In this document: positions 32,623-59,045 of the stretch, piece by piece | Numbering within the stretch: position 1 is the first letter of the stretch | Layout of the letters: every line of letters starts with the position of its first letter | DNA from: Spirochaetales bacterium | GTDB taxonomy: Bacteria; Spirochaetota; Spirochaetia; JABEVK01 | Direction: 5' to 3' | DNA length: 64,000 bases | Assembly (NCBI GenBank): GCA_037142615.1 | Contig: JBAXAI010000012.1 | Location: 26,415-90,414, forward strand | Program-made: the position numbers and the translations under genes | Notes under the pieces: model-generated | What the model was told of the DNA's origin: nothing | Seen by the model: only the letters and a program-made list of their open reading frames with translations | Databases searched by the model: none

Positions 32623-33135
32623 AAGGTGACTAGGATAAACCGATTGTGGGGCGAGTGTCAGCCGTTCAAAGCGGTAGTACCGGTCGGCGAGCTCCTGCAG
32701 GTTTTCTTCGATATGCCTCAAGGCGTACATCCACTCGGCCAGTTCTGACTTTTCGCCCTCGGGCAGTTTTCGCAATTCCAGAAAATGCAGCACGCTCACG
32801 CTGACCACGGGCATGAGCCTACGGTACTGATCACCTTCGTAGATCTGCTCTGTGTAGCTCTTGGCCCAGTAGTACAGGCTGCGCTCACCGTATTCTGCCT
32901 GACTTCGGACCTGCACCTCGACGTTGATCACCGTGCCGGATGTCGATCACCGTGGGCTTGGCGGAATAGTATTCGAGCTCACCGATCGGGTTGACGATCT
33001 CGAGCGACGAAAACTCCTCCATTCCCGCGTGCCGCTGCACCGCGTTGGCGGCCAAAGCGTGGAAGGCCACCCCGGGGCAAGCCGAGATCCCGGTGGGCGC
33101 TTTGGCGCCCGACCGAAGCTCGGCTGGGGGGCGGG
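32623..33135 (-). pseudogene. frameshifted, internally deleted paralogue of the Rpn/TIGR01784-type PD-(D/E)XK 'transposase' gene
   Basis: N-terminal part in one frame (…LEIVNPIGELEYYSAKPTVIDI) and C-terminal part (INVEVQ…ERSLYYWAKSY…) in another, which runs in-frame into the dcp ORF call. Homologous to intact neighbour at 33238. Junction has a 19-nt near-duplication. Confidence 0.5.
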
Positions 33136-33237
33136 TCGGAGGGACCATCGGCCGGGAAAGCGTTGCCGCCCCCCGATTCTTCTGGATTTCTGGAAGCAAA
33201 CGCCTTCATTTCCCTGTCTTGCTGGGTGGAGGTTTCT

Positions 33238-34074
33238 ATGCCGTATTCTCCCATGACCAACGACCGTGTGTTCCGCTATGTTTTTGGTGAGCCCGAAGGC
33301 TTGCCGGTGCTCAAGAGTCTGATCAATGCCTACTTCGACCTCGCGAAACTGCCGCCGGTCGTCGAACTCGAACTGCTCAATCCCGACCTCGGACCCGAAA
33401 CTCTTGGAGAGAAAAGGACCGCGCTGGACGTTCTGGCCCAGGACGAAACCGGACGGAAGATCAATGTCGAAATCCAGACCAGCCGCAAACCGGCTTTCGC
33501 GGAAAGGAGTTTGTTTTACTGGGCGAGGCTCTATGGCCGACAACTTCCGGAAGGTGAGAACTACGTGAGCCTGAGGCCCGTGGCCACTATCAACTTCCTC
33601 GAGTACGAGATCGACCCCGCAGGTCCAGCCATTGGCGAGTACCGCCTGCCCTTCACCGACCATTTGGTGCTGTTCCAGGTCGAGTTGCCGAAGTTCGTGG
33701 GAAAGGCCGCCGAGGGCTTGAATCCGGCCGAACTTTGGGGCAAATTCCTCGAAGAGCCACGGAGCTCGGGACTAACGCGGGAACTGCCGCAGGCGCAGGC
33801 CCTGAATGCCGCCCGTGACCGAATGGAGGCCTTTATGTCGCTTACGCCCGATGTTGTCCGCGAAATCCAGCTGTCGATGTACGACCATGACATCGCCACC
33901 CTCAAGAAGATGGCCGAGCTAGAAGGTAGAGCCAAAGGCAAGGCTGAAGGTCATGCCGAGGGGCTGGAGGAAGGTCTGGCCGTGAAGTCGCTGGCCGTGG
34001 ACGAGATGGTCCGACGGCTCAAAGCCGAGGGCCTATCCCAAGAGTCAATCCGCAGGCTCGTCGAAGGACTGTAG
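33238..34074 (+). CDS. Rpn-family / TIGR01784-type PD-(D/E)XK nuclease 'putative transposase'
   Basis: 278 aa from ATG 33238 (GGAGG RBS). Conserved block D...GRKINVEIQ...ERSLFYWARLY typical of this family. Confidence 0.65.
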   Translation: MPYSPMTNDRVFRYVFGEPEGLPVLKSLINAYFDLAKLPPVVELELLNPDLGPETLGEKRTALDVLAQDETGRKINVEIQTSRKPAFAERSLFYWARLYGRQLPEGENYVSLRPVATINFLEYEIDPAGPAIGEYRLPFTDHLVLFQVELPKFVGKAAEGLNPAELWGKFLEEPRSSGLTRELPQAQALNAARDRMEAFMSLTPDVVREIQLSMYDHDIATLKKMAELEGRAKGKAEGHAEGLEEGLAVKSLAVDEMVRRLKAEGLSQESIRRLVEGL

Positions 34075-34089: not shown

Positions 34090-35757
34090 CTACCCCACCG
34101 TGAAGCGCTTGATTTTCTTGGTCGAGGTCATCTCCATGGGCTCGGCCACGAAGGTGGTCTTGGTGATCTTCTGCCACACGTGCAGCCCGGTGTTAACCTC
34201 GCTGACGATGGCGGCCAGGCGCTCGTCGGTGGGGCGCTTGGGTTCCTGCTGGGGGTAGATGACGGCTTCGATGCCCTCGGCCCGGGTGGCCTCGTCGACC
34301 ACGTAACCGCGCACCAAAATCTGGTCCACCTCGGAAAACAGCTGAAAACGGTCCTCGATTTCCTCGGGGTACACGTTCTTGCCACCCTCGGTGACGATAA
34401 GGTTCTTGGCTCGCCCGGTAAGGTACACGTAGTGCTCGTCGTCGATGTAGCCGACGTCGCCGGTGTTGAGCCAGCCGTCGGAGCTCAGCACTTCGGCGGT
34501 AGCCTCGGGATTCTGGTAGTACCCCTTCATCACCATGGGACCGCGCAGCGCGATGACGCCCTGACCGTTGGAATCGGGCTCGAGGATCTTGAGCTCGACC
34601 TGCGGGATGAGCGAACCGACGCTGGTCTCTTTGTAGTGCCAGGTGGGGTTGATGGTGACGATGGGGCTGGTCTCGGTAAGGCCGTAGCCCTGCACAAAAT
34701 CGACGCCCAGTTGGTTGAAGCCGCGGAACGTCGACGCGGGCAGCGGTCCGCCCCCCGAGATACAGATGCGGATGTCGGCCAGCCCGGCCTGCGAAAGCAC
34801 GGCGCCGAACAGGGCCTTGCCGGGGTTGAGTCCGGTGGTCTTCTTGAGCAGGCCGCTGACACTCATCAGGAACCGCAAAACTCCGTTCACCACCGGACCC
34901 TTGTCTTTGATGCCTTTGAGGATGCCGGCCAGCAGGCGGTTGAACAGCAGGGGTACGCCCAAAAACATCGTGACCTTGGCCTGTTTGAGATCCTTGAGGA
35001 TCTGCGACACGACCATCTTTTTGCCGAAGACGACTTCGGCGCCGCACGACATCGACACCAGAAACACCGCGACCAAAGTATAGCTGTGGTGGATGGGCAA
35101 AAGAGCGTAGAACACGTCGGTGGGGAACAACGGCATGTTGTATTGCGCCAGAAAGGCGTCGCTGACGAGATTTTCGTGGGTGAGCATGACGCCTTTTGGA
35201 TTGCCCGTGGTGCCACTGGTGTACAGCAGCGCGGCCAGGTCGTCGCCCCGGCGCAGCGGCGCGGCAAGGGGCGCCAGAGCGGGCTCGGGCGAGGCTTCCA
35301 GACTCAGCAACTGCACTCCGTCGGGGATTCCGGCTTGCGTGAGCACTTCCAGGCGGTCTTGGTCGGCCCACAGCATCCGCGCGCCGCTAGCAACCAAAAG
35401 GGCCCTCACTTCCTCGCCCTTGAGGCTTGCGTCGAGGGGCACCACAACGGCGTCACAAAACAGGATGGCGAAAAAACCCAACGCCCACTCGGGACTGTTC
35501 TTGCCGCAAAGCCCAACCCTGTCGCCGGGAGCGACTCCGCGCCGCCGCAGATCGGCAGCCCAAACGAGCATGCGCTGGTGCGCCCTGGCGTAGGTGATGT
35601 GCTCCTCGTCTGGATCAAACACCGTGAAGCAAGCCCGGTCGGGGAACTTCTGGGCCGTTTGGGTAAACATTTCGGGCAGCGAAGGCCAAGCGGCAAGATG
35701 CGACCACGGAGCGGGGCCCACGCGGGCAGGTCGGGGGGCGAGATTTGGAATGTCCAT
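34090..35757 (-). CDS. long-chain fatty-acid--CoA ligase (AMP-binding enzyme family)
   Basis: AMP-binding signature LLYTSGTTGNPKGVMLTHENL, YGLTE, and C-terminal GWLNTGD...TGRAKNLI motifs. 555 aa. Confidence 0.8.
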   Translation of the reverse strand: MDIPNLAPRPARVGPAPWSHLAAWPSLPEMFTQTAQKFPDRACFTVFDPDEEHITYARAHQRMLVWAADLRRRGVAPGDRVGLCGKNSPEWALGFFAILFCDAVVVPLDASLKGEEVRALLVASGARMLWADQDRLEVLTQAGIPDGVQLLSLEASPEPALAPLAAPLRRGDDLAALLYTSGTTGNPKGVMLTHENLVSDAFLAQYNMPLFPTDVFYALLPIHHSYTLVAVFLVSMSCGAEVVFGKKMVVSQILKDLKQAKVTMFLGVPLLFNRLLAGILKGIKDKGPVVNGVLRFLMSVSGLLKKTTGLNPGKALFGAVLSQAGLADIRICISGGGPLPASTFRGFNQLGVDFVQGYGLTETSPIVTINPTWHYKETSVGSLIPQVELKILEPDSNGQGVIALRGPMVMKGYYQNPEATAEVLSSDGWLNTGDVGYIDDEHYVYLTGRAKNLIVTEGGKNVYPEEIEDRFQLFSEVDQILVRGYVVDEATRAEGIEAVIYPQQEPKRPTDERLAAIVSEVNTGLHVWQKITKTTFVAEPMEMTSTKKIKRFTVG

Positions 35758-36635: not shown

Positions 36636-37445
36636 CTAGCGCCGGCTTCGGCCCAGCCGCTCTTCGAGCACACGGGCAGCGAGCGACAGGGTAATGGTCA
36701 GGCAGAGGTAGAAAAACGCCACGGCGTTGTAGGTTTCAAAAAACTGGAACGTGCTGGCCGCATACACCTTGCCCATTTGGGTGATGTCTTGCACGCCGAG
36801 CACCGACACGAGCGAGGAGTCCTTGATCATGGCGACCGACTCGTTCACCAGCGCCGGCAGCACGTTGCGGAACATTTGAGGCAGCACGATGTGGCGCAGC
36901 GTTTGCCAGCGGCTGAGGCCCAGCGCGAGGCCGGCCTCGGTTTGTCCCTTGTCGACGCTCTCGATGCCGGCGCGGAACACCTCGGCCAAAAACGCCGAGT
37001 ACCCCAGCGTGAGCGCGGTGACAGCGCGGGTGGTGAAGTCGATGTTGCGGGCCGACAGCGGCACCATCCAGCCCAACGCCTGCACAGGAAACAAGAAAAA
37101 GTTCAGGATTCCCGCGAGAACGGGCGTGGCCACAAACGCGATGTAGTAAAGGATGACCAGCATGGGCAACCCGCGCATCAGCTCGATGTAAAAGGTGGCG
37201 GCCTCGCGGGCCAAGCGCCACGGGCTCCCCTTGAGCAGGGCCAGCCCGAGACCCAGGAACAGACTGATGACGTAGGCGATCATCGCCACAAGAACGGTGA
37301 TTCCGATGCCCGACGCGGTCACCTCAAAAATGACGCGCGACTGGGGGCTCGACAGGGCCGACGTGAGACCGAGGGCCCCCAGCACAACGATGGTGATCAG
37401 CCACCACGGCCAGGGCGCGCGCGAACGCGCCGGGGACCGGAGCAC
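36636..37445 (-). CDS. polar amino-acid ABC transporter permease (HisM/GlnP family), orphan (no adjacent ATPase or binding protein)
   Basis: GTG start overlapping upstream stop (CTAG/GTG). Conserved EAAxxxG-like block EAGLALGLSRWQTLRHIVLPQ. Confidence 0.65.
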   Translation of the reverse strand: MLRSPARSRAPWPWWLITIVVLGALGLTSALSSPQSRVIFEVTASGIGITVLVAMIAYVISLFLGLGLALLKGSPWRLAREAATFYIELMRGLPMLVILYYIAFVATPVLAGILNFFLFPVQALGWMVPLSARNIDFTTRAVTALTLGYSAFLAEVFRAGIESVDKGQTEAGLALGLSRWQTLRHIVLPQMFRNVLPALVNESVAMIKDSSLVSVLGVQDITQMGKVYAASTFQFFETYNAVAFFYLCLTITLSLAARVLEERLGRSRR

Positions 37446-38188
37446 TAGTCTTTCCAGGGAAAAATCATGCCACGGAGGCTGCGCGGACCCAACCGATCGA
37501 GGTCCTCGGCAAGGATTTGCTTCCAGGGCAAGGGTTTCTTCTTGTCCCAGTCCGGGTTCTTCTCCATCCATTCGTAGCGGGTGAGCAGGAACCGGAACGC
37601 CACCTGCAACCAAACATGCACGCCGAGAATACCAGGAAAAAAGCCGAGCGTGACGACCGAGAGGCCCAGAAACAGCACGGTGAAGATGAACAGGATCAGC
37701 GACTGCAGAGGGTGGGCCATGAACAGCATGAAACTCTTGCGCGCCAGCGACTTGAGATTACCCCCGACCTGCGCCTGAAGTCCCGAAAGGTACAAGCTCA
37801 TCCCGAGCAGGAAGAACGCGCCCCAGAACATGACGGCGCCAAACCCCATGCCCGCCCACTGATTGAGCGCCGAGTAGAACGGCACACCGAACACGAAGCC
37901 GGTGCCCAGAAGAATCCAAACGACCGAAGTGGCCAGCGAAGTCTTCCACGAGGCCTTGAAGTGCGGCCAGGCGTCGCGCCAACGAAAGGCGCCAGAAACC
38001 ACCAGGTCCTTGGCCCAGAAGCTCGCGATGCCGCCGAGCAGAAGGCACAACGTCATCCCCAGAGGGAAGAACAGCGGCAATGCGCCGGTGCCCAGCAGGG
38101 CGGTGGTAAACAAAAAGTTGACCAAAAGGACCATGAACAGTTGGTCCCACAGGTCGAAGAACGCTTTTTTGATGGCGAAAGGAAACAT
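37445..38188 (-). CDS. hypothetical membrane protein (YesL/DUF624-like, 6 TM)
   Basis: 247 aa hydrophobic protein. Family assignment from memory only. Confidence 0.45.
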   Translation of the reverse strand: MFPFAIKKAFFDLWDQLFMVLLVNFLFTTALLGTGALPLFFPLGMTLCLLLGGIASFWAKDLVVSGAFRWRDAWPHFKASWKTSLATSVVWILLGTGFVFGVPFYSALNQWAGMGFGAVMFWGAFFLLGMSLYLSGLQAQVGGNLKSLARKSFMLFMAHPLQSLILFIFTVLFLGLSVVTLGFFPGILGVHVWLQVAFRFLLTRYEWMEKNPDWDKKKPLPWKQILAEDLDRLGPRSLRGMIFPWKD

Positions 38189-38197: not shown

Positions 38198-38734
38198 CTA
38201 CCCCAACCGACCGCTCGACAACAAGAACCGCCAGAAGGCCTGGAGCGACGGGAAAGCGAGGTCGGCGAGGTCGACGTCGCGGGGGTTCAGCCAGACGAGC
38301 CTCGTCACCTCGGCCGGGTCGATCACCAGTTCGTCGGGGGGCGTGACCAGTTCGGCTTGAAAGTAAAAGTCGCAGGTGTGGTACCACGCCTTGCCAAACG
38401 TGTACTGGTTGGGGAACGAGGCCAGCAACACAGGTGTGCCGACCTGGCCACCGACTTCTTCGCGCACTTCGCGGGCCAAGGACTGCTCGGCACTTTCGCC
38501 GGGATCGGTGAAGCCCCCGGGTAGACCGAGTTTGCCCTTGGACGGTTCGAGGGCCCGTTCGATGAACAGGGCCTTGCCTTCGTGCATCAGAAGGGCTCCG
38601 ACCGCCGTCGCGACGCTGTGAAAATAACGGAAGCCGCAGGCGGGGCACCGAAACTCGTGCTGGCGCAGGAACTCGATGCCTTTTTGGCCGCACGAGGGGC
38701 AGAAAGTGAACGGAGAAGGCCGGGGGGTTTGCAT
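38198..38734 (-). CDS. NUDIX hydrolase with N-terminal zinc-ribbon
   Basis: 178 aa from ATG 38734. CPSCG...CPACG zinc ribbon. Nudix box GGFTDPGESAEQSLAREVREEVG. Confidence 0.7.
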   Translation of the reverse strand: MQTPRPSPFTFCPSCGQKGIEFLRQHEFRCPACGFRYFHSVATAVGALLMHEGKALFIERALEPSKGKLGLPGGFTDPGESAEQSLAREVREEVGGQVGTPVLLASFPNQYTFGKAWYHTCDFYFQAELVTPPDELVIDPAEVTRLVWLNPRDVDLADLAFPSLQAFWRFLLSSGRLG

Positions 38735-38751
38735 GGCCAGAGTGTAGCGCC

Positions 38752-38790
38752 TTGACCTGCCCTTGAACAACATTTGAACTCCCTTTGAAC
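38752..38790 (+). promoter_or_regulatory. four direct repeats TTGACC/TTGAAC/TTGAAC/TTGAAC at exact 11-bp spacing upstream of the OMP-like gene
   Basis: Seen directly at 38752, 38763, 38774, 38785. Same heptamer family (TTTGA[AC]C) as repeats near the two-component system. Confidence 0.45.
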
Positions 38791-38849
38791 CCCAGTGACG
38801 TTTAACCCTGCTAACGTGAATCCAACATATTTTTTTTGGAGGATTCTGC

Positions 38850-40124
38850 ATGAAACGAATTGTTCTTGCCTTTCTTGCCGTCGCGTTGACCGGAGTCGGC
38901 GCCTTTGCCGACGACGCGGCCAATGCTGCAACGCTTACGGTGCCGTCGCCCCTGACCGCCGCCATTACCGCCGACGGATACGTCCAGGCGGGCGTGGATC
39001 TCGACAAGGGAACCTTCGGTTTCTCGAACGGCTATGACTTCGGCTTCACGTTCAACCTGCTGCCCGGAACCGGCGTCGCACACGGTGACGGCACCATGAC
39101 CGGTACCCTCAGCGTCAGCGCGATCCGCTTGTTCCATTACGACGGCGTTGGTCTTTCCGCGGGTGACCCGGGCAACGGCCTTGCAGGCACCGCTCCTACC
39201 GTCCTCGCCAGCATCGGCGACGTGGTGGCCAAGCTCGTGATCGGTGACCTCTGGATCCAGCTCGGTGACAACGGCGCCGGACCCGGTGCGAGCGTCAACT
39301 ACCAGCCCGGTTTGGCCAACGATTCGGGCTTCCTCACCAGCGACGACACCTTCTACACCTACAGTGGTGTCTACGGCGGATCCTCGACCGAGTACGGCTT
39401 GTCGACCAAGGGTGCAATTGACCCTTCGGCCGCCGCCAAGGGACTTAGCTTTGGCTACACCCTGCCTAACCTCGTCGGTCTGACTGGTTCGGTGGCCTCG
39501 CTCAACGATTGGAAGACTGCGGGCACCAACGTGTACGAAGTCAAGGGCGAAGCCAGCGTGCTCGTCGACTCCAACCTGACACTGGTTGCCGCCTACGCCA
39601 TGTCGACCGCCGCCAGCAGCGATGCCGGCGTGGGAATCAAGGCTGGCTACAACGTGGGTATTCTGAGCCCCCTGGTCGGTGTTGACTTCAACCTCACAAC
39701 CTCGAAGTACTCGGCCGTTGTCGGTTCCAAGGCCGCGCTGGTCAAGGACCTGCTCAACCTGGCCGCCTACGCCCAGTACGACGCCACCGGCGCCGCCGCT
39801 GTGGCTAACGCCGCCGCCAGCCTCGAAGTGACCGCCGCTCCCCTTGGACTCAAGGTAGCGACCCAGTTGACCGACCTGACCGGAACCCTCAAGGACACCA
39901 TCAACGCCCAGCTGACCTTCGCTGCCACCCCTGACATCGGCGTCTGGGCAAAGATGTCGTTCGACAACCTCGGTGCTTCCAATGCCCTGTTCGCCAAGGC
40001 CGGTGTCGATATCGCAAAGCTCTTGCCTATGACCACCCTCTCGCTCGAGTACGACTCGAACGACCTGATGGGAACCAGCGCCATTCTGGGCGAAGTGTTC
40101 ACCACCCTCAAGGTGACCTACTAA
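38850..40124 (+). CDS. secreted Gly/Ala/Thr-rich protein, outer-membrane/porin-like (C-terminal ...TLKVTY)
   Basis: 424 aa. Signal peptide MKRIVLAFLAVALTGVGAFA. GGAGG RBS. Alternating beta-strand-like composition, aromatic C-terminus. Confidence 0.5.
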   Translation: MKRIVLAFLAVALTGVGAFADDAANAATLTVPSPLTAAITADGYVQAGVDLDKGTFGFSNGYDFGFTFNLLPGTGVAHGDGTMTGTLSVSAIRLFHYDGVGLSAGDPGNGLAGTAPTVLASIGDVVAKLVIGDLWIQLGDNGAGPGASVNYQPGLANDSGFLTSDDTFYTYSGVYGGSSTEYGLSTKGAIDPSAAAKGLSFGYTLPNLVGLTGSVASLNDWKTAGTNVYEVKGEASVLVDSNLTLVAAYAMSTAASSDAGVGIKAGYNVGILSPLVGVDFNLTTSKYSAVVGSKAALVKDLLNLAAYAQYDATGAAAVANAAASLEVTAAPLGLKVATQLTDLTGTLKDTINAQLTFAATPDIGVWAKMSFDNLGASNALFAKAGVDIAKLLPMTTLSLEYDSNDLMGTSAILGEVFTTLKVTY

Positions 40125-40149
40125 GCCTGACCCTTCTCGCGGAGAAGTG

Positions 40150-40180
40150 GGCTGGTCCTGTGGGGCCAGCCCTTTTCTTT
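40150..40180 (+). terminator. rho-independent terminator (GGGCTGG...CCAGCCC stem followed by TTTTCTTT)
   Basis: Hairpin plus T-tract 25 bp after OMP-like gene stop. Confidence 0.6.
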
Positions 40181-40491
40181 GTCCGGAAACGACTTGGTAT
40201 TTAACCTGCATTTGACCTGACGTTGAACTAGCCATAACCCGACGTAACCGGGCGTGCGCTAGGATGTCTCTAGAAGTGCGAGAGTGCTGAAGCCCGTGGG
40301 TCTGGAGCGACCGTTCCCAAGGGCAGCAACACACAGCGGTTCAGGGAGGCAGACGTGCCTCCCCTTTTTTTTGGGCCTTCGCTAACACAACCAGTGGTCT
40401 AATGACGCGCCGACCTCTTGCGTCTGGCTGCGCCTCGTCCTCGCCAGACCCAAGACTTCGTCGTGAAGCCCCAAAAAAAATCTTGCCCCCC

Positions 40492-41035
40492 GTCAAGGCG
40501 CAGCCGAAGACACCAGTACGCCCGCCAAAGGTGTTGGACGCAGGTCAAGGCGCAGCCGAAGACACCAAAGTGCCCGCCAAAGGCGCCCGACGCAGGTCAA
40601 GGCGCAGCCGAAGACACCAGTGTGCCCACAAAAGGGCCACGACGCAGGTCAAGGCGCAGCCGAAGACACCAGCATGCCCGTCAAAGGGGCCACGACGCGG
40701 GTCAAGGCGCAGCCGAAGACACCAGCATGCCCGCCAAAGGCGCCCGACGCAGGTCAAGGCGCAGCCGAAGACACCAGTACGCCCACAAAAGGGCCATGAC
40801 GCGGGTCAAGGCGCAGCCGAAGACACCAGTATGCCCGTCTAAGGCGCCCGACGCGGGTCGAGGCGCAGCCGAAGATACCAAAGTGCCCGCCAAAGGTGTT
40901 GGACGCCGGTCAAGGCGCAGCCGAAGACACCAAAGTGCCCGCCAAAGGTGTTGGACGCCGGTCAAGGCGCAGCCGAAGACACCAAAGTGCCCGCCAAAAG
41001 GGTTTGACGCGGGTCGAGGCGCAGCCGAAGACACC
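40492..41035. repeat. 52-bp period tandem repeat (minisatellite), 11 copies: constant 24-mer GTCAAGGCGCAGCCGAAGACACCA plus 28-nt semi-variable part
   Basis: Seen directly. Period exactly 52 bp. Variable part is always a variant of nnnTGCCCGCCAAAGGnnnnnGACGCnG. All six frames open, so ORF calls across it are artefacts. Confidence 0.9.
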
Positions 41036-41072
41036 AGTGTGCACCGAGTAGGCCCTTCCGGGGTGGTGAGTG

Positions 41073-41195
41073 CCCTAGCGCGAGTTCTCCGGTTTGGCTA
41101 AGTCGAGGGGGCGCGAGTACCGCAGCATAGCGGCAGCTATGTGAGGACACGGAGCGTCCCCGAGACGACGCCAAACCGGAGAAATCGCGCTAGGG
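41073..41195. repeat. 26-bp near-perfect inverted repeat (CCCTAGCGCGAGTTCTCCGGTTTGGC / GCCAAACCGGAGAAATCGCGCTAGGG) flanking a 71-bp loop
   Basis: Seen directly (25/26 complementary). Right arm overlaps the stop codon of the response-regulator gene. Lies immediately after the minisatellite. Confidence 0.7.
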
Positions 41196-41909
41196 CTGGA
41201 AGACGTAGCCGATGCCACGGACGGTGGTAATATACCCCTCTGCGTTCGACACCGTTCTCAGTTTCTTGCGCAGCCAAGCCACGTGCACGTACACGGTGCG
41301 CGAGGTCACGAGAGCCTCGTAGCCCCAGGCCAGGCTGAGAATCTTGTCGGTACCGAGCACCTCGTGGGGATGTTCCACAAACAGGCACAAAAGGCGGAAC
41401 TCCTGATGCGAAAGGGGGACGATTTTGCCGGAACGCAACAGGTGTCCACTTTTGTAGTGCAGAACGAACTCACCAAAGACCGTGTCAGCCTTGGTGGTGT
41501 CGAGCCAGTTCTTCTCAAGGGGCAAGGGGGCATCGGTGGTGGCGGGTCCCCGGCGGAGGTGGGCCTCAATCCGCGCCAAGAACTCGTCGTACTCGAAAGG
41601 TTTGGTGATGTAGTCGTCGGCACCGCCGCGCAACCCTTCAACCCGGTCGGCAAGCGAGTCCTTGGCCGAAACGATCATGATGGGCACCGAAGAGCCCGTT
41701 TCGCGAAGTTGGCGGATGATGCGCTCGCCGCCGAAGCCGGGCAACATCAGGTCGATCAGCAGCAGGTCCCAGACCTTGCTGCGCGCCGCCTCCCACCCGC
41801 TGGGTCCATCGTAACACGAGGAGAACTCGTACCCCAACGAAGTCAAGCGATCGCCCACGGCCATGACAAGGCTCCTCGTGTCTTCCACCATCAGGATTCT
41901 TTTGCCCAT
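41190..41909 (-). CDS. OmpR/PhoB-family response regulator
   Basis: Receiver domain (D at LLIDLMLPG) plus winged-helix (VYVHVAWLRKKL...GIGYVF). Confidence 0.85.
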   Translation of the reverse strand: MGKRILMVEDTRSLVMAVGDRLTSLGYEFSSCYDGPSGWEAARSKVWDLLLIDLMLPGFGGERIIRQLRETGSSVPIMIVSAKDSLADRVEGLRGGADDYITKPFEYDEFLARIEAHLRRGPATTDAPLPLEKNWLDTTKADTVFGEFVLHYKSGHLLRSGKIVPLSHQEFRLLCLFVEHPHEVLGTDKILSLAWGYEALVTSRTVYVHVAWLRKKLRTVSNAEGYITTVRGIGYVFQP

Positions 41910-41940
41910 AGAGGATTCTATCCACGGTGTGTCCCCTTGA

Positions 41941-41962
41941 GGTCAAATCGAGGTTAAATCGG
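41941..41962 (-). promoter_or_regulatory. two 11-bp direct repeats GGTCAAATCGA / GGTTAAATCGG (TTTGACC-type heptamers read toward the regulator gene)
   Basis: Seen directly in the divergent region between response regulator and histidine kinase genes. Confidence 0.4.
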
Positions 41963-42008
41963 CACTCCTGCTCTCGAAACCTTGACAGTGAGCCACTATA
42001 CCAAGGCA

Positions 42009-43727
42009 ATGAGAGTTATGCCGCTCGCCAACGCGCGCTCCTCGTTCGTTTTCGTTCCTGTTCTTGCCGTCTTGGCTCTGGCGTCGCTTGTCCTGTTCAA
42101 TTCGCTCGAAACCGAGTCGCAAGCCGAGAACGCCCGTCAGTTGCACTTCATGAAGACCGCAGCGTTCCAGGTTGTCGACGACCTGGGCTACGAGTTATTC
42201 AGCATGGTGTCGGCGTTCAGCTTCGACCTGAATACCCAGATCGCTGACGGGACCGTGATCACCCGCGACACACTGACCGCCGCGGTGGCTCGTTACCGGG
42301 CCCAAGCCCGTTTTCCGTCACTGTTTGAAGAGCTTGCCTGTCTGGAGCGGACCGGACCCGGCACCTACCGTTTCGACAGCTGGAACGACTCGGGCTGGGT
42401 CACCGACTATCGGCCCAGCTGGGCCGAAAACATGGTGGTGCCGCCCCAAGACGGGGGTCGACCAGAAAGCACACCTCCCAGCGACAACACCTTTTCGCTC
42501 GACCGGCCCGTGTTGACCGTGTACCTTCGCAACCGCAGGGCGCAGGTGGGTGAAGTGATTGCCATCACGCTGCGCTTCCGGCCGCAAACGGTGATCGGCA
42601 CCATCGTCCCCGCGCTTGTGAGTCAGAGGTTTTCCGAAAGCAACGGCGCCAGCCCCTACATCGCCAACATCATCTACAGTCCGGCGACAACCTCGGGCGA
42701 CAGCATCCCGGTCGACTGGAGGGTGCCGCTGTTGCCGTGGACCCCCTTTGAAGGCTGGTTCGACTACTACGTGAAGCGGATCTCGGCGCTCCAACCGTCT
42801 CGGACTGCCTTTGATCGGCTTGCCCAACAGCCTGTGGGCGCCAAGACAGAGGGTACAGGTTGGAACCTCGAGGTGAGTCGCCTTCCCGGGGGACTGCTGG
42901 AAGAATTGATCGGTTTCCGGTGGCGGAACGGCGCCCTTTCCCTGGGCTTCTTTCTCGTGCTGGGCCTTGGCTTTCTGGGCTTGTACCTCACAACGAGGCA
43001 GACCAGGTTGCACGAACATCAGGTGCGGACGTTTCTGGCCCTGGTATCGCATGAGCTGAAGACACCGCTGGCGGTGGTTCAGTCGCTGGCCGACAACCTT
43101 TCGCGCGGCATAGGCACCGATGAAGCGCGTGCCAGGGAGTACGGGGTGGTACTGCGCCAAGAAAGCGACCGACTGGGACGCATGGTGAACAACATCCTCG
43201 GTCTGACGGCCATCCAAGGCGGGATTTCGCCCCGCGACAGGTGCCCGATCGAGGTGTCGGCTCTAGTGAAAGATCGTTTGGCCTGTGAGCCTGACCTGCA
43301 AGACCAAGCCGCAGACCTCACAGTCAACACCGAGTTTCCGACCGACCTGCCGCTCGTGCTGGGCCACCACACGGCCTTGTCGGCGGCGATCGACAACCTG
43401 GTCGGCAACGCCTTCCGCCACGGCACACTGGGTCCGGGCCCCCACCTGGTGGAACTCCGGTTGCGGAGCCAACACCGTCTCGGTCGGCGAGGGGTTTCAT
43501 TCTCGGTGCGCGACAACGGGCCCGGCTTCACGCGGCGGGAAGGGCGCCGGTTCCGTCGTCCGTTCCGGCGGGGTCAGCGTGCCAGCCAGGAACAGACCCC
43601 TGGCAGCGGCGTTGGTCTCAGCCTTGTGTACTCCACGGCCGAAAGCCTGGGCGGTCACCTGAGCTGGAAGTCGCAGGCCGGTCGTGGCAGCCAGTTCGTC
43701 CTGTGGCTGCCGGCGGTGGTCAAGTGA
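42009..43727 (+). CDS. sensor histidine kinase (2 TM, periplasmic domain, HisKA, HATPase_c)
   Basis: H-box LVSHELKTPLAVV. N/G boxes (NLVGNAFRHG, GSGVGLSLV). Start at ATG 42009 (TTG at 41982 and ATG 42018 are alternatives). Confidence 0.8.
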   Translation: MRVMPLANARSSFVFVPVLAVLALASLVLFNSLETESQAENARQLHFMKTAAFQVVDDLGYELFSMVSAFSFDLNTQIADGTVITRDTLTAAVARYRAQARFPSLFEELACLERTGPGTYRFDSWNDSGWVTDYRPSWAENMVVPPQDGGRPESTPPSDNTFSLDRPVLTVYLRNRRAQVGEVIAITLRFRPQTVIGTIVPALVSQRFSESNGASPYIANIIYSPATTSGDSIPVDWRVPLLPWTPFEGWFDYYVKRISALQPSRTAFDRLAQQPVGAKTEGTGWNLEVSRLPGGLLEELIGFRWRNGALSLGFFLVLGLGFLGLYLTTRQTRLHEHQVRTFLALVSHELKTPLAVVQSLADNLSRGIGTDEARAREYGVVLRQESDRLGRMVNNILGLTAIQGGISPRDRCPIEVSALVKDRLACEPDLQDQAADLTVNTEFPTDLPLVLGHHTALSAAIDNLVGNAFRHGTLGPGPHLVELRLRSQHRLGRRGVSFSVRDNGPGFTRREGRRFRRPFRRGQRASQEQTPGSGVGLSLVYSTAESLGGHLSWKSQAGRGSQFVLWLPAVVK

Positions 43728-44422
43728 CCCCGGCACCCAAACGCATTTTGATGATCGAAGACGAGCGGGGCCTGGTGCTGTCGGTGAGCGACCGGCTTCG
43801 CAGCGAAGGCTACCAAGTGTTTGCCGAAACCCGCGGAGACAGCGGCTTGCAGCGGGCGTTGGCCGAGGAGTGGGACCTCTTTTTGATCGATGTGATGCTC
43901 CCCGGCGTCGATGGCTTCGAGATCGTCAAACGCCTTCGCCAGGCCAAAATCACCACGCCGGCCCTGTTGGTGACCGCGCGAGAACAGGTGGTCGACCGCG
44001 TTTCGGGCCTGCGCCTCGGGGCCGATGACTACCTGGTCAAACCCTTTGCCATGGACGAGTTGGTCGCCCGCATCGAAAACCAGATTCGCCGGTTGGTAAC
44101 CATGCCGGGCCCGAGCACGCCGAGCCAACGGGTCTTTGGACCCTACGTGTTCGACCCGGTAAAAGCCGGCGTGTTTGTCGAAGGCGAGCGCGTCACCATG
44201 ACCCACCAGGAGTTCCTGCTGCTCAAGGTGCTCATCGAACACGAGGGGCAAGTGGTGGAGCCCGCCAAGCTGCTCGACCTGGCCTGGGGTTACGGCAGCG
44301 AGGTTACCTCGCGAACCCTGTACGTCCATATGTCTTGGTTGCGTCAGAAATTAAAAATCCCCGACCGCAAGGATGGACCCATCCAGACGGTGCGGGGCTT
44401 CGGCTACCTGTTCGTCGGCTAG
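43724..44422 (+). CDS. OmpR/PhoB-family response regulator (second, co-transcribed with kinase)
   Basis: GTG overlapping kinase stop (GTGA). Receiver plus winged helix. Paralogous to the divergent regulator. Confidence 0.8.
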   Translation: MTPAPKRILMIEDERGLVLSVSDRLRSEGYQVFAETRGDSGLQRALAEEWDLFLIDVMLPGVDGFEIVKRLRQAKITTPALLVTAREQVVDRVSGLRLGADDYLVKPFAMDELVARIENQIRRLVTMPGPSTPSQRVFGPYVFDPVKAGVFVEGERVTMTHQEFLLLKVLIEHEGQVVEPAKLLDLAWGYGSEVTSRTLYVHMSWLRQKLKIPDRKDGPIQTVRGFGYLFVG

Positions 44423-44434
44423 AGTGTGCCGGGT

Positions 44435-44851
44435 CTAGCTGCGGTCTTCGGGACCGTCGATGCCCATCGTCCAAATGTTGCGCCCGATTCGCATGCTCGC
44501 AAACTCGGTTTCACCGCGCACCAGCGACGCCTTGAGCAACGGATTGATCAGGGCCGTCAGCGAAGCGCGGTTGTTGGTGTCGTTCACCAGCGTGTCGATG
44601 GCGTCCTTGTAGGTTACGGCGACCGAGGCCAGCGGGGCGTCGATCTTGTCGCCGTCAACTCCATGGGCAGTGAACCATGCGCGGATCGCGTCGGCGGGCG
44701 AAACCTCGATGGTGCCGAGGGTTGTCTGGTCGTTTGTGTGGCCGTACGTGGTCACCAAACGGTAGTTTTCCGCATTGCCCTGAGCGAACGCCATTCCAGC
44801 AGCGCTGGTGACCAGCAGGGTTGCAAGTGCCAATTTCTTGAAGGTTTTCAT
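44435..44851 (-). CDS. small secreted hypothetical protein
   Basis: 138 aa. Signal peptide MKTFKKLALATLLVTSAAGMAFA. Strong GGAGGAAGG RBS. Confidence 0.5.
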   Translation of the reverse strand: MKTFKKLALATLLVTSAAGMAFAQGNAENYRLVTTYGHTNDQTTLGTIEVSPADAIRAWFTAHGVDGDKIDAPLASVAVTYKDAIDTLVNDTNNRASLTALINPLLKASLVRGETEFASMRIGRNIWTMGIDGPEDRS

Positions 44852-44897
44852 GTTTCCTTCCTCCTGAGTCCAAGCTAGTTCTTCCGCGCTGGAGCAA

Positions 44898-44937
44898 GGT
44901 CAAACGACAGCTAAACGTAGGTCAAAGGCCGGTCAAA
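44898..44937 (-). promoter_or_regulatory. four 11-bp-phased direct repeats (GGTCAAA, AGCTAAA, GGTCAAA, GGTCAAA) reading TTTGACC toward the small secreted protein gene
   Basis: Seen directly at 44898, 44909, 44920, 44931. Confidence 0.45.
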
Positions 44938-44966: not shown

Positions 44967-47294
44967 ATGCTTCGTTTCCTTCTGGTCTTTCTGCTGGTTT
45001 TCCCGGTTCTGGACGCTCAAGTCATTCAAAAACAAACGCTTTATACCACCGCGAAGGTGGAAGGCGGAGTCACTGTCACGGTAGATGGCCAAACCTTCGG
45101 ACCCTATCAGGGGGTCGAGGGAGTACCCGCTTTTTCGGCCGACCTGCAGCACTGGGCTCTCGTGGCTCGCAAAACTGGCCCCGGGAACGCTCACGAGGTG
45201 CTGGTTGATGGCAAGAGCGCAACGACGTTGGACCAATACAATGGCCTGATGGGCCTTTCGCTCACCGAGGACGGCAAGACGTGGAGCCTGGTCGCGGGCC
45301 TGAGCACCAACTCACGGCAGAATGCCGTGCGCATCACCAATGGAGTTGCATCCCCGCCGCTGGGCAATGTCGGGCCCCTGGTGGGGTCTCCCGACGGCAA
45401 GAGCTCGTACTTCGTGGCCGAAAGCGACAAAGGCCGGGTTGTGGTGCTGAACGGAAAAGTGCTGGGACCGTTCCAAGACGTCCGTTTCGCGGCTTGGGAC
45501 CTGGGCGGCTCCAAGCTGGCGTTCAGTTTTTCGCGCGGTGGCTCCTGGTTCCTGTGGACCGATGGGAAAGAAGCGGGACCGTTTCAGGACGCGCAGCCCA
45601 TCACCCGCGCCGACGGGGCCTGGCTGGGAACTTCGACCACCGACAAGGCCAACAAGACCACGTTGAACATCGGCGGCAAGGCCTATGGGCCCTACGATTC
45701 CGTCGCCCCCAACCTCGACTGGAAGAGTGCCGACGGCACCAAATGGATGACCCGCGCCTACAAGAAAGGTGTGGCCTACCTGGTCGACAATGGCAAAGAG
45801 ACCAAGCTCGACTCGCTGGATTTCCAAACCCTCCCCGGCGGAAGTTGGGTGGCCCGCTACGGCGGCTTTGCGAATTGGAGGCTGAACATCGACGGCCAGG
45901 TGCTGGGCCCCTACGACGCACCAAGCACACCGCTGGCGTTTGCCGACGGCTCGAACTGGGCCTTTTCGTACGGAACCCTTCCCAACGACCCCACCGAGAA
46001 GTATTTCATCCGCTTGAAAAACGGCAAGACCTATCCAGGTGCGCACCTTAAACTCATCGCCGACGATCAAGGTCAGGCGTTCACCTGGTACACCGACGAC
46101 CGCCAAGGGCCGCTGGTATTCAGCCGGGTCGACAAGTCGGGCTATCAAAGCACGACGCTGGTGACGGTGGTCCCCTCGCCGCCCGACGGTATCACGTTGC
46201 AGGCCGAAAAAGTGACCTCCGGCCCCTACGCCGAAGTGACCGGGTGGGCAGCTTCTCCCGATGGTAGGCATTGGGGCGCGCTGGTCCGGCTCAGCGGTGA
46301 CCGCTACCAGGTGGTGGTCGATGGCCGCGAAGGTGCACCGACCGGGGCCCTGACCCACGTCGGCGACCTGCAGATCAGTGGCAACGGTGCCTCGTGGAGC
46401 TTGCGGGGCTGGCCCACCAAGGGGAGCGACTCCCAGGTACGAATCGTCAACGGTGTTATGGCCGGTCCGTTCCAGTCGCCGTGGCCCGTGATGTTTTCGG
46501 CCGACGGTTCGCACTCTGGCTATTGGAGCCAGTCCCTCAAGGGCAACCAGAAGCAGCTCAACTTCGACGGCAAGCAGTACGGCCCGTACGCCAAAGATCA
46601 GCTGCAGCACCTGTACGACCTCGATGCCGGCCACTTTGCGTTTGGCATGCCCGACAAAGGCGGCACGCTGGTCGTGACGGACCAAGGCAACTTCGGTCCT
46701 TTCCAGGACTACCGCATTCTGCCCAAGCGGGAGCTGGTGCGCGATTCAGAGACCGGAAGTCTGTTTGGCTTCACGGCCCGCAAGTCAGACGGTTCCACCG
46801 TCCTGTACGTGTTTCCGGGCGTTCCCGGTGGTGGAGTGACCTACGGGCCCTTCCAGAATCTGAATGGCAATGGACAGGGTGCCGTGACCCAGGGCGACTG
46901 GTACTTTCTGGGCCAAAAATCCGGCAGCCCCAGCCAAACCCTGCTGCACAACGGCGAGGCGACTGAGGTGCGCGGGGCCGACGTGCGCGTCCTGGCCTCA
47001 GGCGGAGTGCAACTGCGTGTTTGGGAAGAAAACCAGGAAACACTGACGTTGAATGGCCGCAGTCTGGGTTCTTGGACCCACGTGAACCAGTGGTTGGTTG
47101 CCGACGACCAAAACTGGGCCGCCGAAGTGCAGCAAGGGGAGGGCCCGCAGTCTCGCAATCTTCTGGTCATCAACGGCCAGGAGCTCACGGGGACAGACCT
47201 CAAGCTTATTGGCAGCCCGGGTCGCCAAAGCTTCCAGTGGTTCTCGGTGACACCCGAAGGCAGCGGCGTGCGCAATACGTTGGCCCTCCCATGA
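44967..47294 (+). CDS. secreted repeat protein (at least ten ~60-90-aa modules each containing G-P-[FY]-x-[DS]-[VA]); possible beta-propeller
   Basis: 775 aa. Signal peptide. Recurring motif ...NGKVLGPFQDV / GKAYGPYDSV / GQVLGPYDAP / GNFGPFQDY etc. GGAGG RBS. Confidence 0.55.
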   Translation: MLRFLLVFLLVFPVLDAQVIQKQTLYTTAKVEGGVTVTVDGQTFGPYQGVEGVPAFSADLQHWALVARKTGPGNAHEVLVDGKSATTLDQYNGLMGLSLTEDGKTWSLVAGLSTNSRQNAVRITNGVASPPLGNVGPLVGSPDGKSSYFVAESDKGRVVVLNGKVLGPFQDVRFAAWDLGGSKLAFSFSRGGSWFLWTDGKEAGPFQDAQPITRADGAWLGTSTTDKANKTTLNIGGKAYGPYDSVAPNLDWKSADGTKWMTRAYKKGVAYLVDNGKETKLDSLDFQTLPGGSWVARYGGFANWRLNIDGQVLGPYDAPSTPLAFADGSNWAFSYGTLPNDPTEKYFIRLKNGKTYPGAHLKLIADDQGQAFTWYTDDRQGPLVFSRVDKSGYQSTTLVTVVPSPPDGITLQAEKVTSGPYAEVTGWAASPDGRHWGALVRLSGDRYQVVVDGREGAPTGALTHVGDLQISGNGASWSLRGWPTKGSDSQVRIVNGVMAGPFQSPWPVMFSADGSHSGYWSQSLKGNQKQLNFDGKQYGPYAKDQLQHLYDLDAGHFAFGMPDKGGTLVVTDQGNFGPFQDYRILPKRELVRDSETGSLFGFTARKSDGSTVLYVFPGVPGGGVTYGPFQNLNGNGQGAVTQGDWYFLGQKSGSPSQTLLHNGEATEVRGADVRVLASGGVQLRVWEENQETLTLNGRSLGSWTHVNQWLVADDQNWAAEVQQGEGPQSRNLLVINGQELTGTDLKLIGSPGRQSFQWFSVTPEGSGVRNTLALP

Positions 47295-47671
47295 ACCGGT
47301 CGATGGCCGCCTTGATCGACCATTTGATTGCCCACCACGACGTGCTTCGCGTGGGTTTCGTCGGCGCGGGCGACAAGCCCTACGCCGCCTCGCTGTTGGC
47401 GCAGTTCCGCTCGCGCACCGACGACGCGGCGATCCGGCCCGAGGCCGCTTGGGTTTGCCCGGGTGGGACGACTGCCGAAGACGGTGCCGCCGCCGCAGAT
47501 TCCTTGGTCGCGTGGGCCCGGGCCAACTCGCACCGGGGCGCCTTCCAAGCCGTGATCGTCGTCGGAGCTGAGCAGACCCAAGGTGTTCGCCAAGTGTTGG
47601 CCGCGGCGGGGGGAGCCTTGGCGGCCGTTTTCGTCGAAACGATCGAACCGGAACTGGCGACTCAGTACTGA
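47291..47671 (+). CDS. hypothetical protein (126 aa), translationally coupled to the repeat protein gene (ATGA)
   Basis: ORF with ATG overlapping upstream stop. No recognisable motif. Confidence 0.4.
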
Positions 47672-49683
47672 AGGGACTCGATCAGGCTTTCGAGGCTCCG
47701 ACCCTCTTCACGGAGCGTATTGGCCATTGCACTCAGCGACGAGGCCGTTTCTGCCGTGCTGGCGTTGAGTTCAGCCAGATGGCCCAGCGAGGTCTGGATC
47801 GTGAGGGTGCCGCTGAGCTGGCGAGCGGTCGTGGTGCCCGCTTGTGAGGCCAGCGACTGCTGCGTCCGGCTGCTCTTTTCGAGGTCCAGCAACAGGGGAC
47901 CCTGCGCGGCCAACTCCCCCGAAACCTCCGACAGCAATTGGGCCGAGTTGCTCAGGTCTTGCGACAAGTGCTGCAGTTGTTCGCGCACCGTGCGGGAAAG
48001 GCCGGCAAACGCTTCGGCCTCGCCCGTGGCCTGCTGGGCCAGACCCACGACGCCCTCGATTCGATCCCTAACCGACCCAAGGATGACACCGGTGGCCGAG
48101 ACAGACAGGTTGGCCTGTTCGGCCAGCTTACCGACTTCGCCGGCGATCACGGCGAAGCCCTTGCCAGCGGAACCCGCATGAGCCGCCTGAATCGACGCAT
48201 TCATCGCCAACAGGGCCGTTCGGGCCGCGATGTCGGTTATTCCCGTCAGCACCTCGTCGATGCGCTGGCTTTCTTGCTGAATTTGCTGCATTTCACCATC
48301 AAGGCCGGCGAGCAACCGCGCCAAGGTGCTGAACTTTTCAAGGCCTCGGTCCAGGTGGACCACTTCCTCACGGGCGGCGGAGGACCGTTCCAGGCTCTCG
48401 CGACAGGCGTCGGCGGCTCTGTCGGCCAGGTTCTGGCTGCGAACCAGAAGGCCCGAGAGTGTTTGTGCGCCGGTCTGGGCTTGCAGGGCCTGGTCTTCGG
48501 CGGTTCGACCCAGATGTTCGGCGGCTCCCGCCAGGTCGTTGATTTCCTGGGTGATGTTGCGATTCGCTTCGGTTTGAACCTCGAGTCCGAGCTCGAGTTC
48601 GTTGGACCGGGTCTGCGCGGTTTCGGCCGAAAGCAGCAGCTTGCTGAGCACTGTCTCGATGGACCGGAACAGCGTTCGAAGCTCGGCAGAAACGCGGTTC
48701 AGCTGGTGAGCCACAGCGCCCAACTCATCGCCAGAAAGCCGCGAAGTGTCCTGTCGAAAGTCACCGTGAGACAGGTGGCCTACCGTCGTGTTCAAGGCCC
48801 GGATTTGGCGGATCAACGACAACAGGATGAGGCTCATCAACCCGAGACCCAGGGCCACGGCGGCGGTGGAACCGACCAGCGACCACAGCAGTTCCCCTTG
48901 GTAACGGTCGACGCGTGCCTGCACCATCGCTTCCAGGTCGGTGTTGGCGGCATACCAGAGCGCTTCGAGACTGGTCATCGCCTGCCGAGTCAGCGCTTGC
49001 AGCGACGCGCGCGAACCCGTGCCCAGTTCGTCGGCGAGAAGCTTCAAGTCGTTGGTGAGTTTGCCGCTGAGGGTGGGCAGGTGGTCGCTCAACGCTGGCA
49101 GCGGGCCCATGAAGTGTGCATCCTCGCGCAACACGGTCGCAACCGAGGCCTCCACGCCGGGCAAATCGATCTGCTGCACGAGCACCCGGACTTCGGCCTG
49201 GGCCTCGCGGGCCACTTCGCCTACCGCCAAACCGGCCTCGAGGGCCTCGAGCCGTTGCCAAAGGGGCACCAACTGAAACACCGAAAGGTTCATCAAGTAG
49301 TAGCTGTCGAGGTCTGGATCCAGAGTCAGGTTCGAAGCATCCGAAACGGCGGTAATCTGGCCGGCGGCCCAGGTGGCCCAGGCGTCTGGGGTCTTGCTGC
49401 TGTCGAGGGTGAGGTCTTTCAGCGGGAGCGAAGGGAAGTCTGCCGCGTGGCTGCGCAGGTGCGCTTGGATGGCTGCGAGGTCGGCTGTGGGCTGGTGAAG
49501 GCTCACCAGCAGTTGGAACAGGGGCTTGAGCAGCTGGGCACCCTGCACTTCTTTGGCGTTGAAGTTGATGTTGCCCATCGAAACCTGTACCAACAGGTAG
49601 AGCACAAACAACAAAGGAAGAAGAAAGCTGGAGACCATCCAAAAGAACTTTCCCCGGAGCTTCATGCCAGTAGGTTTTTCCAT
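47662..49683 (-). CDS. methyl-accepting chemotaxis protein
   Basis: N-terminal TM, ligand domain, HAMP, and MCP signalling domain with the highly conserved ...[16 protein letters not shown]... segment. Confidence 0.85.
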
Positions 49684-49819
49684 ACGCCAATAGTAATTGC
49701 ACCGGGGCCCGGCGTAAACAGCAAAGAAGTCGACTATTCCGTCCTAATCCCCGTCAACAACCGCCAACGCCGGTCAGGGGCAGACACGAGCGCCCGGGCC
49801 GGTGTATGTTGGCGCACCT

Positions 49820-51658
<1,839 letters not shown>

Positions 51659-51695
51659 TGGAGGGGGGCGTCCCCCCCCTGCGCTCCATAAAAAA

Positions 51696-51720
51696 GGCGG
51701 CCCTCGGGCCGCCTTTTGTT
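51696..51720 (+). terminator. rho-independent terminator of typA (GGCGGCCC-TCG-GGGCCGCC + TTTTGTT), preceded by a G7/C8 hairpin
   Basis: Seen directly. Flanks GCGCTCCATAAAAA and TTTGTTATTGCGCTACCCC are repeated at 63604-63660. Confidence 0.65.
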
Positions 51721-51763
51721 ATTGCGCTACCCCCGTGCGGGGACACCCCTCAAGGCCCGATGG

Positions 51764-51794
51764 TTCGCAAGACTCCGTTGCCCATGCTATAAAG
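51764..51794 (+). promoter_or_regulatory. candidate sigma70-type promoter for the island operon (TTCGCA-18bp-TATAAA)
   Basis: Hexamers at 51764-69 and 51788-93, 20 bp upstream of gene start at 51814. Confidence 0.3.
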
Positions 51795-51813
51795 ATGTTC
51801 GGAGTCCGAACAC

Positions 51814-57072: not shown

Positions 57073-57080
57073 GAGCCCCC

Positions 57081-59042: not shown

Positions 59043-59045
59043 TAC

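Follow-up and report, generated by a model that had tools for sequence, protein, structure and literature searches.

A predicted OmpR/PhoB-type direct-repeat regulon around a two-component system of an uncultured Spirochaetales bacterium

We describe four short arrays of direct repeats in a 64-kb stretch of DNA (the window) from the metagenome-assembled genome (MAG) of an uncultured Spirochaetales bacterium, contig JBAXAI010000012.1, which is also present in ENA as ERZ4224321 NODE_119 (125 kb). The arrays lie around the genes of a sensor histidine kinase and two OmpR/PhoB-type response regulators, RR1 and RR2, and the well-supported prediction is that the locus forms a direct-repeat regulon of the OmpR/PhoB type, an already known and ordinary kind of bacterial control circuit. 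The prediction is solid and the surprise modest. We think it quite probable that the arrays are sites for phosphorylated dimers of the local regulators, RR2 primarily and probably RR1 too. What can be gained is a testable operator code, TTTGACC-N4 in 2-5 units located 20 nt upstream of a -10 element, for an uncharacterised two-component system that is found only in uncultured Spirochaetales-like bacteria. This system would be tied to three uncharacterised outputs, an outer-membrane-protein (OMP)-like protein, a conserved small RNA (sRNA) candidate and a rare small periplasmic family. The code can be used to annotate such MAGs and to choose targets, and it leaves the understanding of OmpR/PhoB-type regulation unchanged.

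The arrays are built of (T/C)TTGA(A/C)C-type heptamers at exactly 11-bp spacing (heptamers in capitals below), and the scans for them covered the window.

Array 1: 38751-38794, plus strand, CTTGACCtgcc CTTGAACaaca TTTGAACtccc TTTGAACccca (heptamers 38751-38790, at 38751, 38762, 38773 and 38784)
Array 2: 40200-40243, plus strand, TTTAACCtgca TTTGACCtgac GTTGAACtagc CATAACCcgac (heptamers 40200-40239)
Array 3: 41937-41958, minus strand, toward RR1, TTTAACCtcga TTTGACCtcaa (heptamers 41941-41958, at 41958-41952 and 41947-41941)
Array 4: 44894-44937, minus strand, TTTGACCggcc TTTGACCtacg TTTAGCTgtcg TTTGACCttgc (heptamers 44898-44937, at 44937, 44926, 44915 and 44904)

Array 1 is upstream of the OMP-like gene, inside a 115-bp divergent region common to that gene and a NUDIX hydrolase gene. 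Array 4 is inside the divergent region common to a 138-amino-acid (aa) and a 775-aa protein gene and is oriented toward the former; its unit TTTAGCT at 44915 is degenerate. An initial annotation of this DNA had described three clusters of TTTGA(A/C)C repeats, and reading the sequence in 11-bp register confirmed their coordinates, strands and phase, as well as the statement that the heptamers of each of the three face the downstream gene. The strict heptamer holds for 7 of the 10 units, with the remaining units off at one or two positions, and the count of three was too low given the array at 40200-40239 on the plus strand.

The signal lies in the phased arrangement, since the single heptamer is not enriched in the window (23 observed vs 17.4 expected). 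The pattern TTGAMC-N5-TTGAMC was observed 5 times against an expectation of 0.05. The degenerate heptamer YTTRAMC gave 6 perfect pairs and 6 triples scoring at least 19/21 at a spacing of 11, and in the 64 kb neither was seen at spacings 7-10 and 12-16. Across 100 Markov-1 simulations there were 0 triples, and perfect pairs had a mean of 0.01 and a maximum of 1. In the 64 kb of the genome that were scanned, the phased pairs and triples are confined to the four arrays (38751-44937), with none in the rest, and the lone heptamer is at background level.

The HisKA kinase and both Response_reg/Trans_reg_C regulators are placed amid the arrays, among the following genes.

38198-38734, minus strand: NUDIX hydrolase gene, ATG at 38734
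38850-40124, plus strand: OMP-like gene, 424 aa, secreted, with a signal peptide, an all-beta prediction and a C-terminal KVTY
41190-41909, minus strand: RR1, OmpR/PhoB-type response regulator, start ATG at 41909 (MGKRILMVED)
42018-43727, plus strand: sensor histidine kinase with HisKA and HATPase_c domains
43724-44422, plus strand: RR2, OmpR/PhoB-type response regulator, whose GTG start overlaps the kinase stop codon (GTGA)
44435-44851, minus strand: small secreted-protein gene, 138 aa, of a rare uncharacterised family
44967-47294, plus strand: secreted-protein gene, 775 aa, divergent from the 138-aa gene

A second regularity is the position of the arrays relative to the promoters. The last heptamer of each window array is followed, after 20 nt (21 for the OMP-like gene), by a -10-like hexamer of the form TAnnnT.

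38811-38817, plus strand: -10-like element of the OMP-like gene, read either as CTAACG (20 nt past the last heptamer) or as TAACGT (21 nt)
40260-40265, plus strand: -10-like element of the sRNA candidate, TAGGAT, 20 nt past the last heptamer of array 2
41915-41920, minus strand: -10-like element of RR1, TAGAAT, 20 nt past the last heptamer of array 3, with the ATG 5 nt further on
44872-44877, minus strand: -10-like element of the 138-aa gene, TAGCTT, 20 nt past the last heptamer of array 4

Together with the related loci described below, the distance is 20-21 nt in 10/10 arrays (four in the window, five at small-protein genes of other lineages and one at the sRNA of the relative L010), 21 being found only at the OMP-like gene and the -10 elements being recognised by sequence pattern. 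By an estimate from base composition, TAnnnT is expected by chance at less than 1% of positions. No TTGACA-like hexamer is found 16-18 bp upstream of the four window -10 elements, and the proximal TTGACC is 3 bp too distant upstream for a -35 role. A -10-like hexamer without a -35, as predicted here, is what one expects of activator-dependent promoters.

The arrays can be followed into related loci. There are about 15 kinase orthologues, 47-76% identical and all metagenomic. The contigs that could be retrieved have a conserved module: an unknown membrane protein of 581-615 aa, then the kinase and an orthologue of RR2 (66-70% identical), with a convergent gene whose 139-160-aa product is homologous to the small secreted protein. 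A phased array, with 4-5 units followed after 20 nt by TAnnTT, is present at every locus where the DNA upstream of this convergent gene is preserved. The lineages concerned (L002, L003, L005/L006, L009 and L013) have kinases 49-55% identical to that of the window.

L002: TTTGACC, TTTGACC, GTTAACC, TTTGAAC, with TACTTT after 20 nt
L003: TTTGACC, GTTGATC, TTTAGGT, GTTGAGA, with TACCTT after 20 nt
L013: TTTGACT, TTTGATT, TTTAGGT, GTTGAGA, with TAGCTT after 20 nt
L005/L006: five units, with TAGCTT after 20 nt
L009: ATTTACC, CTTGACT, ATTAGTC, CTTGACC, with TAAATT after 20 nt

The footprint leaves out L008, L011 and L014, whose contigs end before the informative intergenic regions, and the kinase orthologue P0015. 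Judged by eye, the rest of these small-protein intergenic regions are unlike one another across the lineages. With the window included, the small-protein array accompanies the kinase-RR2 pair in six lineages despite differing surrounding genes. The 35 units of nine arrays, when pooled, have the consensus T-T-T-G-A-C-C-t-n-n-c, in which T3 is present in 35/35 units, T2 in 33/35, A5 in 31/35 and C7 in 30/35. Conservation is 69-100% at the core positions; of the spacer, the first base leans to T (19/35) and the three distal positions are near random. Conserved cores with variable spacers indicate that selection has acted on the cores, and not that the units were recently duplicated in tandem, and we regard the footprint as good because the array geometry recurs where the kinases are only 49-55% identical. 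The operon of the 581-aa protein, kinase and regulator in the relatives has no array and an ordinary TTGGAC-18-TAAAAT promoter. A contig scan of genomes with the kinase as query found only a 30%-identical Gemmatimonadota kinase and no orthologous locus.

RR1 and RR2 each match PF00072 (Response_reg) and PF00486 (Trans_reg_C) and reach no NCBIfam equivalog cut-off (PhoB, OmpR, CpxR, MtrA and others), and from these matches they are classed as generic OmpR/PhoB-family members. They are paralogues with 46% identity. RR2 orthologues accompany the kinase in all related loci, and RR1 is missing from them, being 47-49% identical to the regulators there. RR2 is the primary candidate binder because it is translationally coupled to the kinase and conserved alongside the arrays. 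The recognition helix, SRTxYVHxxWLRxKL, is invariant in RR1, in the RR1 orthologue of L010, in RR2 and in all RR2 orthologues, and since RR1 has this pattern in common with RR2 it very likely reads the same operator code. The N-terminal ~300 aa of the kinase have no Pfam match and are read as periplasmic from hydrophobic segments judged by eye.

The prediction of a local regulon made in the initial annotation is well supported by the adjoining regulators, the fixed distance to the -10 elements and the co-conservation with the kinase/regulator pair. Three of its parts need to be modified, the third being the OMP label, discussed below. The two-unit site upstream of RR1 may serve autoregulation, a cascade from RR2 to RR1, or both, which the sequence cannot separate. 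The proposal that one of the regulators controls itself holds to the extent that a site precedes RR1, but the site is not before the kinase-RR2 operon, RR2 being the regulator conserved with the arrays, and the shared recognition helix leaves the sequence indecisive. Similarly, the proposed control of two secreted or outer-membrane protein genes agrees with the arrays preceding both, but is incomplete in that the fourth array precedes a non-coding, sRNA-like unit.

In the circuit that we propose, the kinase would sense an envelope or periplasmic signal and phosphorylate RR2, and possibly RR1. Each 11-bp unit, made up of the 7-bp TTTGACC core and 4 variable bases, would take up one winged-helix domain, and the domains would line up head to tail along a single DNA face, with two units forming a dimer site and four units forming two adjoining dimer sites. 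The arrays would span about -72 to -33 of the inferred transcription start (-50 to -33 at RR1), and the bound regulator would recruit RNA polymerase and thereby activate. Transcription is expected to depend on the bound regulator because a -10-like TAnnnT is present and a -35 hexamer at 17 +/- 1 bp is absent. The outputs would be four units, namely the OMP-like protein, the ~100-nt sRNA, RR1 (as a cascade or as positive autoregulation) and the small periplasmic protein. What the sequence shows directly is the arrays, their phase, their constant distance to the promoter elements and their co-conservation with the kinase-RR2 pair; which regulator binds, in which direction it acts, where transcription starts and what the kinase senses we infer.

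Other explanations of the arrays could be offered. They might be regulator sites at which binding represses, or does both, with the likely promoters of the divergent NUDIX and 775-aa genes, which arrays 1 and 4 overlap, being occluded. Array 1 does begin 16 nt from the NUDIX ATG and adjoins a TACACT that is followed by 5 nt and then the ATG, likely a leaderless promoter; a TAGACT facing the 775-aa gene lies 6 nt past the distal end of array 4; and HemR activates and represses via the same box (PMC11426443). We nevertheless consider this unlikely, as the repeats face, at a fixed 20 nt, the -10 elements of OMP, sRNA, RR1 and small-protein promoters that lack a -35, which fits activation, and if the divergent genes were repressed, this would come on top of activation and not in its place. 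The arrays could also belong to some other regulator whose gene is elsewhere in the genome, their closeness to the two-component system being incidental. Such a regulator is conceivable given that many OmpR-family members recognise TGAC/TTAAC-like cores at 11-bp phase and that 64 kb of the genome is in view, but it would have to explain how the small-protein array travels with the kinase-RR2 pair through lineages with different surroundings, and this makes it very unlikely. That the repeats have no protein-binding role at all, being left over from 11-bp tandem duplication or serving as phased T-tracts that bend DNA, is hardly credible. Tandem Repeats Finder does list the arrays as short 11-bp tandem repeats; however, their cores are conserved while most spacer positions vary, their position relative to the -10 is fixed and they are kept across lineages whose flanking DNA looks unrelated. 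Against bending in particular, runs of only 2-3 T fall short of what classical A-tract curvature requires.

Activation by the local regulators, which we prefer, also has points that weigh against it. A generic sigma-70 scan of the array region returned no promoter, the -10 elements having been assigned by sequence pattern only. Outside the window, L010 is the one lineage that shows the OMP-sRNA-RR1 part of the regulon, and the footprint of this part is thin. The RR1 site holds two units only, and RR1 and RR2 are not distinguishable by sequence. Lastly, the scan covered 64 kb of the genome, and it is for this stretch that the regulon may be called local.

Comparison with known systems helps to place the arrays. 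As the initial annotation had held, 11-bp direct repeats are the anatomy of OmpR/PhoB-family operators, with a 7-bp core and a 4-bp spacer arranged head-to-tail at 11 bp centre-to-centre. The motifs of Mycobacterium tuberculosis PhoP are of 7 bp with a 4-bp spacer (PMC4832192), Streptomyces PhoP has direct-repeat units of 11 nt (PMC2275107) and ArcA sites contain 2-5 direct repeats at 11 bp centre-to-centre (PMC3798270). The arrays are like these operators (the PhoB Pho box, M. tuberculosis PhoP DR1/DR2, Streptomyces PhoP, ArcA) also in having 2-5 units and winged-helix regulators. Sites of the family adjoin or replace the -35. The arrays differ in their core sequence, TTTGACC, and in that their proximal unit ends 20 nt upstream of the predicted -10. 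In E. coli the Pho box reaches to within about 10 nt of the -10 and the OmpR F2-F3/C2-C3 sites abut -40, so that the array geometry here is closer to the latter than to the Pho box. Among spirochaetes, the Leptospira regulator HemR has the hem-box TGACA-N6-TGACA (PMC11426443). HemKR/HemR is alike in having a spirochaetal OmpR/PhoB-like regulator and a TGAC core at 11-bp phase, but the hem-box has two units and serves haem genes, whereas the arrays have 2-5 units and OMP-like, sRNA and small periplasmic targets, with no haem genes nearby. Small periplasmic proteins, porins and/or sRNAs are the outputs of CpxRA-cpxP, ZraSR-zraP and EnvZ/OmpR with ompF/ompC and micF/omrAB. By analogy, the logic of the predicted circuit resembles that of these envelope-stress systems, with a kinase-regulator pair beside a small periplasmic protein, a porin-like gene and an sRNA, but there is no sequence or fold relationship and homology supports no membership.

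The Pho regulon (PhoR-PhoB) was considered because of PhoR-like annotations of distant matches and of ppk/ppx near some relatives, and it failed on equivalog scores and on targets. RR1 and RR2 reach 153-160 bits where the PhoB cut-off is 296, and the kinase, aligned only over its catalytic core, reaches 110 bits where the PhoR cut-off is 334; neither the targets nor the scanned flanks include phosphate-acquisition genes (pst, phoA etc.). In several related loci ppk and ppx/gppA are 2-5 kb from the kinase-regulator-small-protein module (L003 6397-10046, L006 6157-8850); they are not in the window, and as a phosphate link their nearness is a weak hint.

The unit behind array 2 is a candidate regulated sRNA, separated from the OMP-like gene by a terminator.

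40149-40182, plus strand: intrinsic terminator of the OMP-like gene (hairpin 40149-40172), a 10-bp stem and then a T-run, separating the gene from the next unit
40272-40372, plus strand: sRNA candidate of ~100 nt, a long imperfect hairpin and then a terminator

The terminator hairpin of the candidate, GGGAGGCAGACGUGCCUCCC (GGGAGGCAGACGTGCCTCCC), is at 40344-40363 and is followed by C and U8 (eight T). Over its 101 nt the candidate has a minimum free energy of -46 kcal/mol (z = -3.55, with 0/200 shuffles as stable). The same order of elements, OMP gene, terminator, array, sRNA-like unit, long hairpin and RR1 orthologue, is found on L010, a 2.6-kb contig of a relative whose OMP-like protein is 54% identical. 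Its sRNA array reads TTTAACC, TTTGACA, GTTGAAC, CATGACC, then 20 nt and TAAGCT. Nucleotide identities between the window and L010 are as follows.

OMP core promoter and 5' leader (last repeat to ATG): 96%
Long hairpin: 91%
sRNA unit: 90%
RR1 coding sequence: 77%
OMP coding sequence: 67%
OMP terminator region: 65%

The sRNA unit is 90% identical vs 67-77% for the flanking genes, and therefore the non-coding unit is under stronger constraint. It contains no open reading frame (ORF) that is conserved in L010. The interval 40272-40372 matches no Rfam 15 family, even at E <= 1, and the sRNA core, searched against metagenomes, turned up no homologue beyond another assembly of the same strain (L012). 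Covariation was not obtainable with two sequences only. RNAduplex predictions of targets among all 5' regions were discarded, as they gave full-length duplexes, which mean nothing in this GC-rich DNA; no perfect complementarity of at least 7 nt to local translation-initiation regions was found, and we propose no target.

The 138-aa protein is predicted to be the conserved target of the system. Its family is tiny, with 21 representatives at E <= 0.001 among 1.84 billion in an exhaustive search, and it has no Pfam, NCBIfam or PDB sequence match. An AlphaFold2 model from an 18-sequence alignment is a small alpha/beta domain, confident over residues 45-135 with a mean predicted local distance difference test score (pLDDT) of 84.9, and Foldseek found no PDB neighbour for it at E <= 0.001. 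Assignment to CpxP/Spy/ZraP, which have an LTXXQ-type helical fold, was rejected, since there is no Pfam/NCBIfam match and the model is predicted as alpha/beta with no PDB match. The 424-aa protein is the NCBI entry WCG80_09760 (hypothetical protein, MAG, Spirochaetales bacterium). Its OMP-like label is plausible but unproven: the signal peptide, the all-beta prediction and the terminal KVTY are joined by a match to the Treponema TDE1717 outer-membrane beta-barrel family that stays below threshold (E = 3e-4, 20.8 bits vs a cut-off of 135). Its AlphaFold2 model, from a 2-sequence alignment, was unusable (pLDDT 28.6).

The promoter positions also bear on where genes start. The RR1 ATG (41909) has no Shine-Dalgarno sequence and its -10 is only 5 nt upstream, and the RR1 transcript is probably leaderless. 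The gene caller used for the contig put the RR1 start at 41864, which would delete strand beta-1 of the receiver domain. The same pattern, TAnnnT, then 5-7 nt, then an ATG without a Shine-Dalgarno sequence, is found at the window genes 37445-38188, 38198-38734 (NUDIX), 28697-29725, 34090-35757, 41190-41909 (RR1) and 47662-49683, and at the 581-aa genes of L002 (8180-8260) and L005 (4300-4500). This suggests that leaderless mRNAs are common in this lineage, and gene callers misplace the starts of such genes, as at RR1. The 5' leader of the OMP-like gene (38818-38852) contains GAAUCC and GGAUUC, which, as judged by eye, could pair and partly sequester the Shine-Dalgarno sequence GGAGGA; the leader may be a translational control element.

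The DNA between the sRNA candidate and RR1 has further repeats and hairpins. Past the sRNA terminator, the non-coding interval 40373-40480 is conserved in L010, with the core TGACGCGCCGACCTCTTGCGTCTGGCTGCGCCTCGTCCTCGC 100% identical and a plus-strand fold of z = -3.9. It contains GGCTGCGCCTC, complementary to the GAGGCGCAGCC motif (GAGGCGCAGCC or AAGGCGCAGCC by unit) of a 52-bp tandem array at 40492-41042 (10.6 copies, 86% match), itself without a significant fold on either strand. Eight of the 52-bp units carry a minus-strand CTTGACC at 52-53-bp spacing, and the flank GCGCCTTGACCTGC matches the first unit of array 1 exactly. The copy number varies: L012 has two units more, and L010 has about two units, reading CTCGACC. 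The ORF at 40402-40842 was rejected as protein-coding, as L010 lacks its ATG and the open frames arise only incidentally from the repeat. One may speculate that the 52-bp array is a regulator decoy or a long non-coding RNA. We think it distinctly unlikely that the locus combines one kinase feeding two paralogous regulators with a common code, a feed-forward cascade from RR2 to RR1, a new spirochaete sRNA, a new small periplasmic family and the 52-bp array, with its eight CTTGACC half-sites about five helical turns apart, as a decoy or titration platform or as part of a long non-coding transcript.

From the RR1 stop codon a near-perfect hairpin of ~125 nt extends over 41072-41196 (-92.6 kcal/mol, z about -10 on both strands; 91% identical in L010). 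In L010 the stop codon has changed from TAG to TGA and the opposite arm compensates with CTA to TCA. The hairpin is possibly a 3'-end stabiliser or terminator of RR1; an Rfam mir-942 match in it is spurious.

Further features lie elsewhere in the window. A full-length bipA/typA gene (49802-51658) is followed by a block of ~11 kb encoding DUF499, AAA ATPase, DUF1156 and SNF2/PLD helicase proteins and by a duplicated bipA 3' end at 62797-63537 (whole region 49802-63537), and from its sequence the ~11-kb block looks like a defence-type island inserted at the bipA 3' end. Two PD-(D/E)XK_2 transposase-like matches are found, one in a 303-aa ORF (33163-34074) and the other as a fragment at the N-terminus of an M3 peptidase ORF (30589-32931), where it suggests a mis-set start or a remnant element.

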